64,000 nt of DNA from Sedimentisphaerales bacterium. Its GTDB lineage: Bacteria; Planctomycetota; Phycisphaerae; Sedimentisphaerales; SM23-30. The position numbers were made by a program, and so were the translations under genes. The DNA lies in NCBI GenBank assembly GCA_963666285.1, contig OY762711.1; one strand, written 5' to 3'. Shown piece after piece: positions 177-8,110 of this stretch. Below the pieces are notes generated by a model. It ran no database searches. It was not told the origin of the DNA and was given only the letters and a program-made list of their open reading frames with translations. Position 1 is the first letter of the stretch. Every line of letters starts with the position of its first letter.

Positions 177-926
177 TTATTTCATATACTGTTTTCTTAA
201 GTTAAATTGCTTATCCAATGGCAAACCCAATAATAACAATGCCTGCTGAACCACCACATCTTCAAGCCTCTCCAGATACGCACTGCTATAGGCTGATTTG
301 TCAAGCAATTCTAAAATAAATTCCATATTTAAAGCATGGAAAAATATAGGAGTATTCAATATAATCGAAAGCATTAGAGCTTCATCATGAGAGACCCCCG
401 GCAATATCAATCTAATCACATTTAGTGTTGATTTTATATCATTATCTAAAAATCTCTCCTTCAGATAATCTTGCAACTCACTTTTAGTTTGGAGTAATTG
501 ATAAACTATTTTGGCATGCCAATCGGGTTTATTTTCATTAAATAACATATGTATTTGCCGATGAATCAATACACGAATAGCTTTTGCTTGCCCTTCAGGA
601 CTGTCCATTATATCACTATAGGGCTTCAGTGCCTTTTCAGCACTAAATTCAATAAAATCATTTATCGAATCATCAATTACAGCCTTAAATAAATTGGATT
701 TACTACCAAAATGATAATGAATACTTCCAATATTCACTTTACAAGCATCTGCAATCATTCGGGTTGAAATAGAATGAAAACTATGTTTTCCTGCTAAACA
801 ACCAGCAGTATCAATTACAATCTGCCTGGTCAACTCCCCACTCTTATAAGTCTTACCTTTATAGATACTTGTTTTTTTTGTTCTCACGATATTAAAAATA
901 TCCTTAAAATTATAATATTTTATCAA
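177..926 (-). CDS. TetR/AcrR-family transcriptional regulator (CecR-like)
   Basis: HTH signature TRQIVIDTAGCL...STRMIADACKVNIGSIHYHFGSKSNLF; downstream of the RND operon; true start may be later than the TTG at 926. Confidence 0.9.
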   Translation of the reverse strand: MIKYYNFKDIFNIVRTKKTSIYKGKTYKSGELTRQIVIDTAGCLAGKHSFHSISTRMIADACKVNIGSIHYHFGSKSNLFKAVIDDSINDFIEFSAEKALKPYSDIMDSPEGQAKAIRVLIHRQIHMLFNENKPDWHAKIVYQLLQTKSELQDYLKERFLDNDIKSTLNVIRLILPGVSHDEALMLSIILNTPIFFHALNMEFILELLDKSAYSSAYLERLEDVVVQQALLLLGLPLDKQFNLRKQYMK

Positions 927-949
927 AACATCAATTATCTAACACTACA

Positions 950-979
950 AATTTACACGACCAAATAAAATCAGTCAAG
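950..979 (-). promoter_or_regulatory. sigma70-type promoter of tetR (TTGACT-17 nt-TAAATT)
   Basis: Minus strand CTTGACTGATTTTATTTGGTCGTGTAAATT; near copy at 8111-8140. Confidence 0.6.
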
Positions 980-1352
980 ATTCTTAAGCAAATATTTACC
1001 AATTACTCTATTCAAATAAGAGAGATATATCACATAACTAAATTATTACGAACTTAAATAGCAGCAATATGAGTATATCTGCAATATTTGTAGTTTTGTA
1101 ACATTTTTCAAATATCTAATTATTCAAAATAGCCCAGGCAACCAAGGTGACCATCAAGCTGTATATTTATAGTAGCCTGGGCATAATTGTATTTTGGAAA
1201 AAATGATATTATCATTCAACAAAACAAACTCCTAAATATCCTCTAACCACATCATCTCATTAATACAGCTTATAAATTTCAACTTTCTATTGAAAACCAT
1301 CGCTGTAAACCCAAATTGAGGATATTGTCTTTTTTATAAATTCAACATATAT

Positions 1353-2699
1353 TTACTTCTCACAAATATTTTCCATAATTTCAGTTATCTTTCCGGTTTC
1401 AGCATCCAAAGTTATCCCATCAATCTCACATTGGATTTTAGCAGCATTAACCCTGACAAATACTGCAACCAAATCAGTCTGCACCTCATTTAATCTGGTA
1501 ACTGAAACTGTTCCTGCCAGATAAGCCTTGTTTACACTATCTCTTATTCGAACGGCTAAATTCTGGATTTTGAGCTGGTTTTCTAAAATACGGTATGAAT
1601 TATCAAGATTTGCTATGGCCTGCTGAATACCTGACTGAATTTCTAGAATTTTACCTTTATATTGCTGTTCCAGCATCAATTCATCATGCCTCGCTTGAGC
1701 CACCTGAGATTCCCTCCGCCCCCCAGAAAACAAATTCCAACTCAAGTTAACTCCTAAATAGCCAATATTTTCATCCTGGTCAATAACACCTACATCTTCT
1801 GTCTTGGTATAATCTACTCCGCCAACTACAGACAACTTCGGATAATAATTACCCTTTTGAACCTTAACGCGATGCTTGGCCGCAATAATCTCAGCCTGTA
1901 CCTTCCTCAGGTCTGGTCGATGTTCTAATGCATAACTAAATTCCTGGTTAAAATCATATTCAAACTCCTTAACTGCTGACTTAAACCTTTCCGGCAACAG
2001 TTCAGCTGTCAATTCAGCATCTTTTACTGCCATCAATTCAGCCAAAACAGTACACGCAGTCCGAAAATTCAACTCAGCATTCATATAATCTGTCTCTGCC
2101 TGTAATGCTCGTAGTGAAAAATTTAATACCTCAGACTCCGGAGCCGTTCCGGTCTCATATCTTACCTTGGCTTGCTGTTCCAAATGTAGGTTAAAATGCT
2201 GGTTCTGAGCGGCAACAACCATATTCTCCATAGCAAGTTGTGATTGTAGAAACGCTATTGAACTTGCCTGAGCCAGCAATCTTTTAATGTTAAAAGACAA
2301 TTCTTCTGCCTGTTTAATTTCCTGTTGTGCTATCATAATATTTGCTTCTCGAACAAAGCCATCAAACAAAAGCCAGTTAAATCCTATCCCAACAGTCCAT
2401 TGATTCATATACTCTTTCATACGATAGTCAGGTTCCCAGTCAGGCTGGTCTACAACTCTTTGATATTTTCTACCTGCCGTTAAATCAACAGCTGGGATCC
2501 GTGATGATTGAACCTGCTTCAATATCTGGCCCGCCGAATTAATTCTCTCAACGGCAGCAGCAAAGTCAGGATTGTTAGTCAATGTTATTTCGCAGGCTCG
2601 CTCTAAAGTAAGAGTTCCACTGGAAATATCATCTGAAAGTTCTGCAGCAATTACCGAGTTGCAGAGCAAACTCATTAAAAATATTAAAGTATATCTCAT
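1353..2699 (-). CDS. TolC-family outer membrane efflux protein
   Basis: Signal peptide, two OEP repeats (ALEHRPDLR, YYPKLSV, LSWNLFSGG); follows the RND gene. Confidence 0.92.
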   Translation of the reverse strand: MRYTLIFLMSLLCNSVIAAELSDDISSGTLTLERACEITLTNNPDFAAAVERINSAGQILKQVQSSRIPAVDLTAGRKYQRVVDQPDWEPDYRMKEYMNQWTVGIGFNWLLFDGFVREANIMIAQQEIKQAEELSFNIKRLLAQASSIAFLQSQLAMENMVVAAQNQHFNLHLEQQAKVRYETGTAPESEVLNFSLRALQAETDYMNAELNFRTACTVLAELMAVKDAELTAELLPERFKSAVKEFEYDFNQEFSYALEHRPDLRKVQAEIIAAKHRVKVQKGNYYPKLSVVGGVDYTKTEDVGVIDQDENIGYLGVNLSWNLFSGGRRESQVAQARHDELMLEQQYKGKILEIQSGIQQAIANLDNSYRILENQLKIQNLAVRIRDSVNKAYLAGTVSVTRLNEVQTDLVAVFVRVNAAKIQCEIDGITLDAETGKITEIMENICEK

Positions 2700-2755
2700 A
2701 TTATATCCTATTTATATGTGTATCTACTATAAAAATTAGTATTCAAATATATCAC

Positions 2756-5700
2756 CTACTCGTTACAATTCCAATCCAGATATCTTCGTTCAGGCTTTAT
2801 CCTGAACAGCAATGAATATAATACAGGAACAACAAATAAAGTCAAAAATGTCGCTGCAAATAACCCGCTCATTATAGTACCTGCCATCGCCTGATATAAT
2901 GGATCTGATGTTAAAGGCGCCATACCAAGGATAGTGGTTCCTGATGCCATTACTACAGGCCGCATACGACTAACCGAAGAGTCCAAAATAGCCTTATATG
3001 GAGGTTTCCCTTCTTTAAGATCAATTTCAATCTGGTCTATAAGAACAATAGCATTCTTTATCAACATACCTGACAACCCAAGAAAACCTAAAATTGCCAT
3101 AAAACCAAACGCCATCCGCAATACCATCAAGCCGGGGGCAACACCTATTAATGCCAGTGGTACAATTAGCATTATTAAGCCAGAACGTCGTAAAGAATTA
3201 AACAGAATTAGCAAAATAACATACATACCAATAATACATAACGGGAATATCTTTGCAAGCGGCTCCTGACTTTCAATAGAACTTTCATACTCGCCACCCC
3301 ATTCCAGAGAATAGCCTGTAGGCAACTCAATGTCACTTGCCTGGATCATAATGCTTTGAAGAACCTCTGCGACATTATAGCCTGGCTGAGGATTACACAT
3401 AATAGTAATAGTCTTTTCCCTGTTATAACGCTGTATCAAAGGCCACTGCCATGTGTGTGAAATTCCTGTCAAAGTCTGACTAATGGGAATAAAGCTTTGC
3501 TTGACTGGACTCCATACTTGCACATCAGCGATCTGCCCTACACCTTGCCTCTGCTGTTTTCCAGTCCTGAATACTATTGGTAAAAGTTCGTCCGATTCAC
3601 GATAGACTCCTGTTGTAAGCCCGGTATAATTCATCTGCAAAGCATTTGACAAATCGCTTCTGGAAATACCTACAATCCTAGCCTGTTGCTCAGAAAAATC
3701 TGGCTGAATTATACTTGTCGGTGTCCTCCAGTCATTAAAATAATCCTGCGTATGTGGAGTTGATTTCATAATCATTTCCATCTGGCCCGCCAGCATTTCC
3801 AAAACTTTTTGCTCCCCCCCCCTCAACCTGGCCTGGATTTTATATGTGTTTCCGGGACCATTAGGTATTTTACAAACATTTGGAGTAGCATCAGGGAAAT
3901 TCTCAGTCATATATTCGAGTATCTGTTCCTGTAAACCATCAATCCTTTTATAGTCGTCAGTTTTTACAAGTATCTGACCGTAGCTGCTGTTTTTACTTTC
4001 GTAATCATAAGACAAGATAAATCTCAACGAACCTTCACCTATAAATGATGTAACGTCCAGGACACCATCAAGCCCGGCTACATAACGCTCAATTGCCATA
4101 AGATCACTAGCTGTTTTCTCAATATGAGTCCCTTGCCCACTCCAGTAATTCACATAAAAATACGATTTAGTCGAATCTGGAAAAAATGCTTTGGGAACCT
4201 TATTTGCAAATGTAATTTGAGCTAGTACAAGCATTGCTATTACACAAGCTAATGACAACCACCTGAACTTGATTACCGTGTGAAGCATTTTCCTGTAAAC
4301 ATTGAACATTGGCCTGTCATATGGATTAGCCATATGAATATCAGGTATTTTTAAAAACCATACACACAGCAGAGGTGTGACAGTAACAGCTAATATCCAA
4401 CTTAATAATAATGACACTGCCATTACATCAAATAATGATCGACAGAATTCACCCACATTTCCAGGCGAGAAACCAATTGCTGTAAAAGCAAGTATTGCAA
4501 TCATGGTAGCACCAAGCAATGGCCAACGAGTATCACGTACAGTATCCTCCGCGGCATCAATACGACTCTCACCACGCTCTACGCGTATTAGAATTCCCTC
4601 GGCAACCACTATCGCATTATCTACAAGCATTCCTAGAGCCAGAATCAAAGCGCCAAGAGATATCTTTTGTAAAGTAATATCCATCACCTGCATAGCAACA
4701 AATGTCCCTAGTATATTTAGCAGAAGAATAAAACCTATCAATAGTCCGCTCGGTGCTCCCATAAATATCATCAGCAATACAACCACAATAACCACAGCTT
4801 CGGCAAGGTTCCAGACAAACATATTTACCGCCTCGACCACTACGTCACTCTGGCAATATATTAAATTAATCTTGACCCCTTCCGGTAATACCGGTGTTAG
4901 TTCGTCAATTTTGGCTTTTACGGACTCCCCCATTGTTATTACATTTCCACCATCAATTGTTGAAATACCCAACCCAATACATTCTCTGCCATTATATCTC
5001 ATCATATTTGTCGGCGGCTCTATATAACCTCTATACACACTGGCAACATCAGAGACTCTTATCAAACGTTCATCGTTTCCTATCAGCAAATTTTTTATAC
5101 TGTCTTCACTCCGAAAATCTCCACTCGGTAAAATTCTTAAATAGGAATCACCTACTGTCACTTTACCACTTTGAGTTACCGCATTTTGATTGTTAATAGT
5201 TTGCACTATCTGCATTGGTGGAATACCAAGCTCAGCCATCCTTGCTCGGTCATATTCAACATAAATGCATTCTTGACGCAACCCCCAGAAGTTGACTTTC
5301 GCCACATCCTCACATAGCAATAGTTCATTCTTAAGTTCATCTGCTATGTCTTTAAGTTTGGCATAGCCATACCCCGGAGCTGTAATGGCATAATACACAC
5401 CGTATACATCTCCGAAATCATCATTGACAATAGAAGGGCCGGCTCCGGATGGCAAATACATCTGACAATCATTAATCTTACGACGCAGCTCGTCCCAGAT
5501 TTGGGGTAGTTCACTTCCATGTATCTCATCTTTTATGTCAACAAAAACATAAGACATACCATCTTCAGAAGTAGAGTAAACCTTCTTAACCTCGCCGATC
5601 TCCTGAATCGCCTCTTCTATTACATCTGTAACTTCCTCCTCAACTTCTGATGGAGTAGCACCTGCATATGGCGTAACAACCAATGCTGTCTTAATTGTAA

Positions 5701-5818
5701 AGGTAGGATCTTCAAGACGTCCCAGTTTTTCGTAAGAAATTATCCCGCAACCAATAAGAAGTAGCGTAAGTACAACCATCGTAGTACGGTTTTTCAATGC
5801 AAATCTTGCTGGATTCAT
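2756..5818 (-). CDS. RND efflux transporter permease (AcrB/AcrD/AcrF family)
   Basis: 1020 aa; GMLVDNAIVV, GMLIKNAIVL and SRMRPVVM motifs; two large periplasmic loops. Confidence 0.96.
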   Translation of the reverse strand: MNPARFALKNRTTMVVLTLLLIGCGIISYEKLGRLEDPTFTIKTALVVTPYAGATPSEVEEEVTDVIEEAIQEIGEVKKVYSTSEDGMSYVFVDIKDEIHGSELPQIWDELRRKINDCQMYLPSGAGPSIVNDDFGDVYGVYYAITAPGYGYAKLKDIADELKNELLLCEDVAKVNFWGLRQECIYVEYDRARMAELGIPPMQIVQTINNQNAVTQSGKVTVGDSYLRILPSGDFRSEDSIKNLLIGNDERLIRVSDVASVYRGYIEPPTNMMRYNGRECIGLGISTIDGGNVITMGESVKAKIDELTPVLPEGVKINLIYCQSDVVVEAVNMFVWNLAEAVVIVVVLLMIFMGAPSGLLIGFILLLNILGTFVAMQVMDITLQKISLGALILALGMLVDNAIVVAEGILIRVERGESRIDAAEDTVRDTRWPLLGATMIAILAFTAIGFSPGNVGEFCRSLFDVMAVSLLLSWILAVTVTPLLCVWFLKIPDIHMANPYDRPMFNVYRKMLHTVIKFRWLSLACVIAMLVLAQITFANKVPKAFFPDSTKSYFYVNYWSGQGTHIEKTASDLMAIERYVAGLDGVLDVTSFIGEGSLRFILSYDYESKNSSYGQILVKTDDYKRIDGLQEQILEYMTENFPDATPNVCKIPNGPGNTYKIQARLRGGEQKVLEMLAGQMEMIMKSTPHTQDYFNDWRTPTSIIQPDFSEQQARIVGISRSDLSNALQMNYTGLTTGVYRESDELLPIVFRTGKQQRQGVGQIADVQVWSPVKQSFIPISQTLTGISHTWQWPLIQRYNREKTITIMCNPQPGYNVAEVLQSIMIQASDIELPTGYSLEWGGEYESSIESQEPLAKIFPLCIIGMYVILLILFNSLRRSGLIMLIVPLALIGVAPGLMVLRMAFGFMAILGFLGLSGMLIKNAIVLIDQIEIDLKEGKPPYKAILDSSVSRMRPVVMASGTTILGMAPLTSDPLYQAMAGTIMSGLFAATFLTLFVVPVLYSLLFRIKPERRYLDWNCNE

Positions 5819-6122: not shown

Positions 6123-7286
6123 TTATTGCTCAATAATTGCAGCCTGCAGTGAAGTATCCGCATCAATATGTGTGTATCCTTGAACAACAACCATATCACC
6201 ATCATTTACCCCGTCGCTTACAACCAGATCATCCTGCCCGTAATAGCCCGCAAGCTTAATAAAACACTTACAGGCTTTCTGACTAGATTCAGAATAGAGC
6301 CATATAAAAGATTTCTCTCGCTCATTTAACACACAACTTTCAGGAACAGTTATTGATTGCCTCTGAGAATTATTCGGTTCTATAATTACGTTAGTACTCA
6401 TCCCAGGCATAATCTGGATATCAGACAAATTTGGCATGGAAAAAGTCAACCTGTACGTTTTAGTTACAGGATCAGAACCTATTTGCCATTCAACTAGTTC
6501 CGCAGAAAAAATACGATTAGAAAAAGCGGGAAACGTTACTGATCCCTGAAGATCTTGAGATAACTTGTAATCAGCAATTTTATTTTCCGGAACAAACACA
6601 TCAATTTCTAAAATTGAGATATCCTGAACAACCAGAACTGTTGTTCCGGCATTGACAATTTCGTAATTCTCGACGAACTGTTCGGAGACTATACCATCAT
6701 AAGGAGCCCTAAGTTCTGTATCCTGCAATTGATGCCTGGCTATTACCAACTGAGACTCCACTGCTTTCAATCCAGCTTTTGCAGCAGCCAAAGCGTTAAC
6801 TGCATGATCATAATTTTCCTGAGTAGTAACATTCTCATTAAATAATTTACTACTCCGCTTATAATCCTGCTTTGCATTCTCCAACTGAGACTGCACACTT
6901 TCCTTCTGAGCCATAAGAACAGCAATCCTGTCCTGAAAATCACGAGGATCTATCTGAAGCATTAATTGACCTTCTTTAACCATATCGCCAGGCCTAACAT
7001 CAAGCTTTACCAATGGACCGGAAACTCGAAATGCCAGCTTAGTTTCAACACTCGATCTTATTGTGCCAGGATAGGAACATGACTCGGCAATTGCATGAGC
7101 TTTGACTTTTAATACTGTCACAGGCATCGCTGTCGCAAAGTTTGCGGCATTGTTACTAAGTTCTTCACCTGCTTTTGCTGATGACTTATTAGCCGCAACA
7201 AAGACTCCAACACAAACTGATATCGCAACAATATAAATCACTACCTGTTTTACTAGCTGTCGAGTAGGCATGTCGCCTCCTTTCAT
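6123..7286 (-). CDS. RND periplasmic adaptor (membrane fusion protein); native start is ATG at 7981 (exon 1 = 7981-7978, exon 2 from 7258)
   Basis: N-terminal TM, LAFRVSGPL, LRAPYDGIV, IMPGMS; spliced N-terminus MKLVKQVVIY; unspliced alternative starts at 7286 and 7271. Confidence 0.93.
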   Translation of the reverse strand: MKGGDMPTRQLVKQVVIYIVAISVCVGVFVAANKSSAKAGEELSNNAANFATAMPVTVLKVKAHAIAESCSYPGTIRSSVETKLAFRVSGPLVKLDVRPGDMVKEGQLMLQIDPRDFQDRIAVLMAQKESVQSQLENAKQDYKRSSKLFNENVTTQENYDHAVNALAAAKAGLKAVESQLVIARHQLQDTELRAPYDGIVSEQFVENYEIVNAGTTVLVVQDISILEIDVFVPENKIADYKLSQDLQGSVTFPAFSNRIFSAELVEWQIGSDPVTKTYRLTFSMPNLSDIQIMPGMSTNVIIEPNNSQRQSITVPESCVLNEREKSFIWLYSESSQKACKCFIKLAGYYGQDDLVVSDGVNDGDMVVVQGYTHIDADTSLQAAIIEQ

Positions 7287-7977
7287 TAATTTAACAAATT
7301 CTGAGTTTCATTATATTTTGTGCAAGGAAACGCATGCCCCTCACTGAACCGGACTTGAAGATTTCCCTCATCCGGCTCTTCATTAATGCTCACTTTGACG
7401 GCTACATAAGGCAAAGTAATGTGCCTTGTAGAAGTCTCCGATAGAAGACGCTGTGGAACGTTCATGGTTTCTTCCAGTTCAGTGCCTGGCCAATATCCTG
7501 TTTCGCCTTTACACATTAATGCTGACCCCTTCGAGTGCCTCAAACTTCGAAACTCAACAGGCATTACCCTGTTTACTCCTCTACTATGAGTCAGTCCGAC
7601 TACCAAAATGCCATACGGCCGCGTCACGGTTTCAGCTCCTTGGCCGCTTCCTTTCGGAGCACTTCGGTTCTCCCAAGTTCCAATGCAGTCAGTTCGTTTG
7701 CCCGCTACGGACTCAGACCCCGGCTCGTCGATAGATGCTCGCCGTATTTCGCATATATCGATATTGGCTTCAGGCATATGAAAACCCTGGCCCGGATGCG
7801 ATAAGGAATAATTTCGGGGCTCAACACCTTCACTTGCGTTGTGGCTGACAAACTCCTTTCCCGGGGCTTCGTACAGTTCGTTACCTCTCTGCACGCCCGG
7901 TGCTGTAATGGGCGGGTGGCTAGCCCTTACCCATGCCGGATTGGCCGGCTTGACTACATTAGCTTCGCTTGGCGCTC
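7259..7977 (-). mobile_element. ORF-less group II intron (IIB-like, 719 nt)
   Basis: 5' GAGCG; EBS1 UCAUAU (7781-7776) in a stem-loop, complementary to exon end AUAUGA; D3-like GUCGGACUGACUCAUAGUA..GAAGGGGUCAG; D4 closed by CAUUAAUG; D5 GAGCCGGAUGAGGGAAAUCUUCAAGUCCGGUUC (7378-7346); D6 GAGGGGCAUG/CAUGCCU-A-CUC with bulged A at 7265; ends in AC; removal restores the host frame. Confidence 0.93.
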
Positions 7978-8110
7978 TCATATTTTATTTCCTTAAATAT
8001 TTTCTTTTCCAAAAACAACCACAGTATTTCAAAATAGCATAGCCCAAAGCCATCATTGATATTACTAATACAAACAAACTACACTATCATTCAAATGAAA
8101 TGCTTTATTC

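Follow-up and report, generated by a model that had tools for sequence, protein, structure and literature searches.

Start-codon targeting by a class E group II intron of a Sedimentisphaerales genome, with a spare start in domain 6 and a possible translation relay through the ribozyme

Group II introns of a IIB1 clade that includes Avi.groEL and EcKTE56.groEL sit where housekeeping genes have their start or stop codons and carry a subdomain Ia of 300-700 nucleotides (nt); the extracts of PMC12584367 call the process by which they are targeted unknown. Here we describe an intron of a different class, class E, that shares this habit. It lies on the minus strand of contig OY762711.1 (assembly GCA_963666285.1, a Sedimentisphaerales bacterium), in a stretch of 64,000 nt that we call the window, and interrupts the gene for an RND efflux periplasmic adaptor one base past its AUG. 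Its exon-binding sites (EBS) appear to read the start codon and the Shine-Dalgarno (SD) sequence of the host gene, its domain 6 (D6) holds a second SD and AUG, and a frame stays open from the host AUG through the ribozyme.

Like the Avi.groEL clade, this lineage inserts in or next to a codon at which translation begins or ends, and the interrupted signal is in effect replaced (in the groEL case, by a new stop that the intron brings). The source for that clade, reportedly Michel et al. (2007) as cited in PMC12584367, may also describe start signals in D6. Unlike the clade, the lineage belongs to class E, uses an explicit anti-AUG/anti-SD code, and hits diverse genes for accessory or secreted-type proteins rather than housekeeping genes. 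It has no subdomain Ia insertion of 300-700 nt (the domain 1 (D1) model begins 34 nt past the 5' end of an intron that totals 719 nt), and it is not a IIB1 ribozyme with a CL1-type reverse transcriptase (RT), as judged against the pO157 intron and not the groEL intron itself. Since these structural marks of the Avi.groEL clade are absent, the habit looks convergent, start-codon colonisation having arisen separately in class E. Its base pairing offers a concrete answer to how introns colonise start codons, the process called unknown for the published clade in the extracts of PMC12584367.

The intron and its downstream exon are placed as follows.

7977-7259, minus strand: class E group II intron of 719 nt without an open reading frame (ORF) for an RT, recognised by Rfam, by identical ends in 8 copies with different flanks and by an intron-less ortholog
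6123-7258, minus strand: 3' exon, encoding an RND efflux periplasmic adaptor (235.7 bits to TIGR01730, past its cut-off)

Rfam matches cover D1 (7944-7708, RF02005, 112 bits) and D5/D6 (7380-7259, RF00029, 52 bits), and the D5 catalytic triad, the bulged A of D6, the D1 core and the AY 3' end are all present. The intron runs from 5' GAGCG to CUCGAC 3', departing at its 5' end from the group II GUGYG. We could fix the boundary one base after the AUG because a genome of the same genus has an intron-less adaptor ortholog (51% identical) with an AAGGA SD and an uninterrupted SD-AUG-AAG start, beginning MKLLSQ. Excision in silico yields AUG-A/AG-CUA (the slash marks the insertion point) and a product of 379 amino acids (aa) starting MKLVKQ.

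The targeting code at this site consists of intron-binding sites (IBS) in the exon and their partners in D1.

7983-7978, minus strand: IBS1, AUAUGA, holding the host AUG (7981-7979); from the sequence and covariation in 82 introns
7995-7985, minus strand: IBS2 region, exon -8 to -18, UAAGGAAAUAA, overlapping the host SD AAGGA (7994-7990); from the sequence and a register scan
7781-7776, minus strand: EBS1, the anti-AUG UCAUAU, lying in the Id3 terminal loop; from sequence, covariation and fold
7811-7802, minus strand: EBS2 segment, UUAUUCCUUA, anti-SD-like, with a covarying core at 7809-7806; from covariation and a comparative fold

We collected relatives from metagenomes with a pattern of intron 5'-end letters only, which gave at least 119 stretches, and added more from related genomes. 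The matches listed comprise 161 hits, 156 of them with a 24-nt flank (144 distinct flanks); 85 have an alignable D1, and 82 are readable. Among them the 5' end is GTGYG in 124 of the 161 and GAGYG in 35. Over the 82 introns, EBS1 pairs with its own exon at a mean of 5.43 of 6 positions versus 4.37 for permuted exons, a value reached in 0 of 20000 permutations (relatedness among the introns inflates this and the other covariation and permutation tests), and at sites without ATG the EBS1 changes along with the exon. The preliminary description had paired EBS1 with all six bases of IBS1, the AUG included, and that pairing is borne out both at this locus and by the covariation. It had also proposed that the ribozyme homes to translation-initiation regions, which should show in the flanks of homologous introns as EBS/IBS covariation and as enrichment of SD and ATG. 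Both signals were found: among the matches listed, ATG stands at -4 to -2 in 113 of the 144 distinct flanks (ATGA in 104), the metagenome-only part of these matches has it in 89 of 108 flanks, and an SD-like motif lies upstream in 78 of the 113 ATG flanks versus 9 of the 31 others.

For the segment starting at 7811, the best pairing register begins at exon -8 (4.39 versus 3.66 of 7 pairs, 0 of 20000 permutations), and this signal holds within ATG sites, within non-ATG sites and over 50 distinct EBS2 types (0 of 20000 each). Covariation is confined to segment positions 2-5 (7809-7806, opposite exon -10 to -13), with none at positions 6-9. The proposed pairing of this segment with the exon and its ribosome-binding site (RBS) was thus right in sequence and register; the 10-base-pair helix drawn for it was ruled out as a conserved feature and shrinks to a core of about 4 base pairs. 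EBS2 contains CC in 45 of 68 introns at ATG sites versus 1 of 14 at other sites, and the 16S RNA of the genome ends in ...CUCCUU. On these comparisons we take it that the segment 7811-7802 is EBS2 and that its core is anti-SD-like. The D1 fold suggested earlier as a check gave a divided answer: the segment is unpaired in a comparative fold of 52 sequences (P <= 0.01) and internally paired in a single-sequence fold, where 7809-7803 pairs with 7858-7852 (P 0.86-0.97) and EBS2 is buried. This pairing, whose partner at 7858-7852 is an AAGGAGU internal to D1, may reflect an alternative conformation peculiar to this intron. For EBS3/IBS3, exon +1 is A in 39 of 42 cases, and the 3 exceptions show no covarying intron base.

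Site choice can also be followed within the genome, which carries 8 copies (99.7-100% identical), a single degenerate variant, two fragments and two full relatives that encode an RT (about 85% identical).

G000:C1:910721-912649 and G000:C1:5397267-5395339: RT-encoding class E relatives, 1929 nt each, EBS1 UCUUAA, at non-start sites
G000:C1:1613560-1614207: degenerate variant, 648 nt with a 71-nt deletion, altered EBS1, non-gene site, host frame interrupted by 9 stops

All 8 copies and the degenerate variant are inserted at TATGA/A. Clear gene starts host 6 of the 8 (5 of 8 under a stricter 'first ATG' criterion), while start-like sites make up 10.5% of the 6060 TATGAA sites in the genome (p=3e-5). 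The other two lie at a Met within an RHS-like fragment (motif by eye) and at a non-gene SD mimic. AGG occupies -15 to -13 in 7 of the 8 copies versus 24% of start-like TATGAA sites (p=3e-4). Conditional on AGG, 6 starts in 8 do not exceed the background of 45% (p=0.09), and recognition of SD and AUG sequence therefore suffices to explain the location; with the SD mimic and the RHS-like fragment also used, site recognition looks purely sequence-based. The copy at G000:C1:2351430, at a Met inside an RHS-core-like fragment, has an SD mimic ahead of it. Prepilin-type N-methyl-motif gene starts were hit independently in two genomes (L305 in G037, and G000:C1:1407255), with Pfam N_methyl shown for the G000 gene only. 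The 5' part of the degenerate variant has patches resembling the RT-encoding copies. Proliferation of ORF-less introns has been described in Thermosynechococcus (TeI3), where, in the parts of PMC2882425 consulted, the introns are IIB1/CL1, occupy mostly intergenic or twintron sites and come with no description of general RBS targeting.

These data bear on the possibility that only the anti-AUG EBS1 matters for homing, the bias to SDs and gene starts coming from purging elsewhere and EBS2 drifting to match. CC is missing from EBS2 in 23 of the 68 ATG-site introns, 12 of which keep an SD in the flank, and start-like sites in the genome naturally have their SD at -15 to -13. According to the extracts of PMC3753933, a class E intron could splice in vitro without EBS2, which therefore probably acts mainly on DNA. 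Against this, AGG is far more frequent at the copies than at start-like TATGAA sites, the non-gene copy has AAGGA at the right distance, and EBS2 covaries both within the ATG group and at non-ATG sites. We regard homing by EBS1 alone as improbable; the sequence comparisons give good support to the view that an anti-AUG EBS1 and an anti-SD EBS2 together direct the intron to translation-initiation regions.

The overlap of IBS1 and IBS2 with AUG and SD would also fit a regulatory main function, in which the EBSs, by pairing, would block the host RBS of the precursor RNA and make host expression depend on splicing. As to the putative competition of EBS-IBS pairing with 30S loading, raised in the preliminary description, the predicted EBS2-exon duplex (-6.8 kcal/mol) is similar in strength to that of the 16S tail on the host SD (-5.1 kcal/mol). 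However, the RBS is transcribed about 170-200 nt ahead of the EBSs, which would give the 30S subunit first access; the target genes are unrelated (adaptor, hydrolase, pilin-motif protein, DUF3472 protein), and copies so nearly identical indicate that the selfish spread was recent. The frame and the spare start described below point to tolerance rather than gating, and we consider regulation an unlikely main function.

The spare start lies in the D6 hairpin.

7269-7282, minus strand: replacement start, SD AAGGAGG (7282-7276) plus an AUG (7271-7269) that shares the frame of the 3' exon (MPTRQ-LVKQ..., 382 aa)
7262-7344, minus strand: D6 hairpin with the bulged branch A at 7265 (-29.9 kcal/mol, z=-4.4)

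Because this AUG is 13 nt from the intron 3' end, it is in frame with any exon cut after AUG+1, and unspliced mRNA can therefore give the host protein with three extra residues. The D6 AUG is present in all 42 family members with a recovered 3' end and the SD motif in 40, while both are absent from 4 of 4 sister introns. At the 28 ATG sites with enough 3' exon, the D6 frame stays open for 80 or more codons in 18 (11 of them outside this genome) versus 0 of 28 in each of the other two frames. In five genomes chosen because they bear the family, 13 of 15 D6-end hits head ORFs of 141 or more aa. In one relative genome (G485), 6 D6-end hits include 5 that are 3' remnants (32-123 nt) whose 5' exon is gone; these still head intact ORFs of 351-504+ aa, with N-termini that look by eye like signal peptides; in another genome an intron collapsed to about 150 nt precedes an ORF of 504+ aa. 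These remnant genomes are assemblies of incomplete genomes. The genes headed by remnants suggest that the D6 start works. We consider it likely that the targeting and the D6 start are both real.

Remnants and collapsed introns of 32-237 nt with the D6 SD and AUG as apparent gene start are L289/L304, L300, L307, L312 and L313 (G485), L301 (G031) and L303 (G368). L289 is the 32-nt remnant, and L313 has a second group II-like 3' end directly upstream. An intron of Clostridium tetani, C.te.I1, is likewise ORF-less, with annotated starts of downstream ORFs in D5/6 and RNA that is mostly unspliced; as far as the extracts of PMC3919590 go, it differs in being class B-like, at a single locus, alternatively spliced, without EBS2 and away from a host start codon. 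The lineage also causes gene starts to be mis-called, with MPTRQ or MSTRQ N-termini and a spurious 231-aa ORF.

Our preferred reading, to which we give a probability of roughly 0.7, is that this is a non-autonomous class E intron specialised on translation-initiation regions, which shields its host from the insertion. By comparison across the family, an EBS1 of the form UCAUNN reads AUG and the UCC core of EBS2 reads the SD GGA at exon -11 to -13, and insertion therefore falls one base after the AUG. Splicing would restore AUG-AAN, and mobilisation and splicing would be provided in trans by an RT-encoding relative, for example the ~85%-identical intact copy in the same genome; the copy at 910721-912649 is the likely helper. 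On unspliced mRNA the D6 start may be used instead, reached through the proposed translation relay set out below.

Several observations weigh against this reading. Only 6 copies are at clear gene starts, CC is missing from EBS2 in a third of the introns at ATG sites, EBS2 is buried when the single sequence is folded, and there is no long in-frame exon at 10 of the 28 ATG sites. Family counts come from related sequences, not independent events. The genome's own RT-encoding copies have a different EBS1 and lack the open frame, and the RT of the copy at 5397267-5395339 has YADN in place of YADD. In 4 sequencing runs (1 of RNA, with a 0.04 share of words), positions 7258 and 7978 were joined in none, which has no bearing on splicing; the single RNA run returned only 85-95%-alike pieces of relatives.

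A further property of the intron is a frame that starts at the host AUG.

7981-7286, minus strand: 231-codon frame from the host AUG through D1-D6, stop TAA at 7288-7286, no Pfam match

A second stop, TGA (7285-7283), follows the TAA and lies directly ahead of the D6 SD. The frame is open over its 231 codons in all 8 copies; of the 35 stop triplets none lies in it, and no dinucleotide shuffle among 20000 was open (mean 11 stops). Three ORF-less relatives (79-80% identical) have instead a 30-codon leader that ends at nt 87 on an SD, followed by an AUG at nt 104 (AUG104) whose frame is open to the homologous stop at nt 689. Their peptide matches the 231-codon peptide only past nt ~255, the phase differing over nt 104 to ~255; thus the phase changed while the frame stayed open. 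The frame was ruled out as a conserved protein by the lack of a Pfam match, the phase shift relative to relatives and the absence of third-position bias (column variability by codon position is 0.136/0.144/0.155). From these sequences we propose that selection acts on the open frame and not on the peptide, and the open frame at the host AUG suggests that ribosomes do load on the precursor.

The arrangement recurs in the family. A leader stop falls at nt 81-108 in 56 of 66 ATG-site sequences, and a start codon stands at nt 104 in 40 of 45 representatives (47 less 2 that do not align). Where members encode an RT, the frame from AUG104 commonly terminates at 476-479 or 497, next to the point at 481-496 where the RT starts. 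The frame is fully open in 22 of the 45 representatives, as against 0-2 for five control frames. Across the 33 lineages retaining AUG104 there are 11 rare stops, versus 29 and 67 at equal opportunity; the depletion is absent in 12 lineages without AUG104. A TGA at the base of D6 is present in 27 of 29 other members and is GCG in this sublineage, and L162 stops exactly there. The 5-26% chance of remaining open that a per-lineage simulation gave is left aside as support; the simulation was conditioned on open frames.

We judge a translation relay through the ribozyme plausible at about even odds. Ribosomes from the host AUG would cross the ribozyme, stop beside the D6 SD, melt the D6 stem that locks away the spare SD and AUG (opening cost ~19 kcal/mol) and re-initiate by translational coupling. 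In RT-encoding relatives the route would comprise the 30-codon leader, the SD and AUG at nt 104 and an ORF of ~125-130 codons, and would end at the RT start. Such passage may protect the transcript from polarity or decay. Translation and ribozyme folding would be mutually exclusive on any one molecule, and splicing would therefore occur mainly on transcripts that ribosomes miss. In its full form this picture, a catalytic RNA that doubles as an mRNA conveyor, mimicking the 16S anti-SD and the initiator anticodon and passing ribosomes to the RT or to the hidden D6 start, could equally prove right or wrong. The ORFs of the yeast mitochondrial introns aI1 and aI2 are translated in frame with the upstream exon. 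They resemble the arrangement proposed here in that reading proceeds from the 5' exon through D1-D3, and differ in that their product is a fused RT precursor, whereas here the frame stops beside the next start and the peptide looks unconstrained.

It is also possible, and we keep it as a distinct if less favoured account, that the targeting and the D6 start are real and the open frame is an inherited accident, with initiation in D6 through breathing or decay, or reliance on splicing. Several points argue for this and against the relay: rare stops pooled over the 45 representatives show no depletion (39 versus 39 and 91); the frame is broken in about half of them; protein-level constraint is absent; and antisense frames are stop-poor too (means of 3.0-4.0 stops versus 2.6 in the proposed frame), with stretches of 300+ nt open in 20 of 45 and one antisense frame having only 15 rare stops, at lower opportunity. 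Among RT-encoding members, moreover, the stretch of 100-170 nt between the RT stop and the AUG in D6 is not consistently spanned by any ORF. On the other side, a start codon at nt 104 is widely retained and the stops adjoin the RT or D6 start, the frame survives compensated frameshifts and a shifted AUG in L037, the otherwise conserved D6 TGA has been removed in the sublineage with the proposed relay, and the degenerate variant at a non-gene site has 9 host-frame stops.

If the relay is true, the intron would be a simple bacterial system for studying translation versus ribozyme folding, as well as a natural design for inserting at gene starts in an expression-neutral way. If the conveyor is true, each transcript would choose translation or splicing, the element would tap the translation signal of the host gene, and host genes would be left with start signals of intron origin by dead copies.

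The assignment to class E is supported by the RT of the 85%-identical relative, which is 44% identical to that of the disrupted intron on pRmeGR4b versus 29-35% for the other introns on those plasmids and pO157, in a comparison set outside which class F lies. We take the disrupted intron to be the class E intron S.me.I4, an inference from the extracts of PMC5894124. One Rfam model is common to our intron and the pRmeGR4b intron, while the other reference introns match other models; the pO157 intron, 35% identical over part of the RT and with an Rfam D1D4-7 match, is EcI5, a IIB1/CL1 intron (PMC8643678, in extract). The relative's RT (443 aa) has only RVT_1 in Pfam and no endonuclease domain, and it scores above the cut-off for TIGR04416. 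Alpha' on a hairpin tip and a 5-nt D5 loop are listed as IIE/IIF features in the extracts of PMC3753933, and our intron has both, alpha' being at the tip of the DId3 hairpin. It thus resembles the bacterial class E introns Cl.be.I2 and S.me.I4 in RT lineage, Rfam D1D4-6 match, alpha' hairpin, D5 loop, lack of a detected endonuclease domain and small ribozyme. Unlike those introns as described in the partial sources used, it has start-codon homing, the D6 SD and AUG, read-through frames and 5' GAGCG. Our literature search, which left subscription journals largely outside its coverage, turned up no paper on this lineage, on homing of class E introns to start codons, or on coupling across a ribozyme.

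The lineage is widespread in sediment-type metagenomes and several phyla, with named RT relatives in Planctomycetota, Lentisphaerota and Ignavibacteriota. Members at ATG sites are spread across the in-group of an RT tree, and several non-ATG members nest within them; this tree was made by a quick method with a midpoint root, and it leaves the base and the monophyly of the AUG-targeting lineage unresolved. Viral contigs gave 0 matches with two patterns. Plasmids gave one partial, apparently degraded relative on the Caedibacter plasmid pKAP298 (L261, 38101-42417, RT 65%), whose D6 end also reads AGGAG...ATG.

The remaining features of the intron are these.

7346-7378, minus strand: domain 5, AGC triad, 5-nt GAAAU loop (fold z=-4.4; RF00029)
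7918-7922, minus strand: alpha (UAGCC), covarying with alpha'
7739-7743, minus strand: alpha' (GGCGA), terminal loop of the DId3 hairpin, from fold and covariation

Alpha and alpha' covary as A-U in 55 and G-C in 13 of 70 readable introns, with 2 discordant. A promoter scan was at chance level (11 versus 8.0+/-3.0). Downstream of the adaptor, on the minus strand (177-5818 in the window), ORFs resemble by eye an RND permease (1020 aa), an outer-membrane factor (448 aa) and a TetR-type regulator (249 aa). At the ortholog locus, L262, the regulator is instead positioned upstream of the adaptor.
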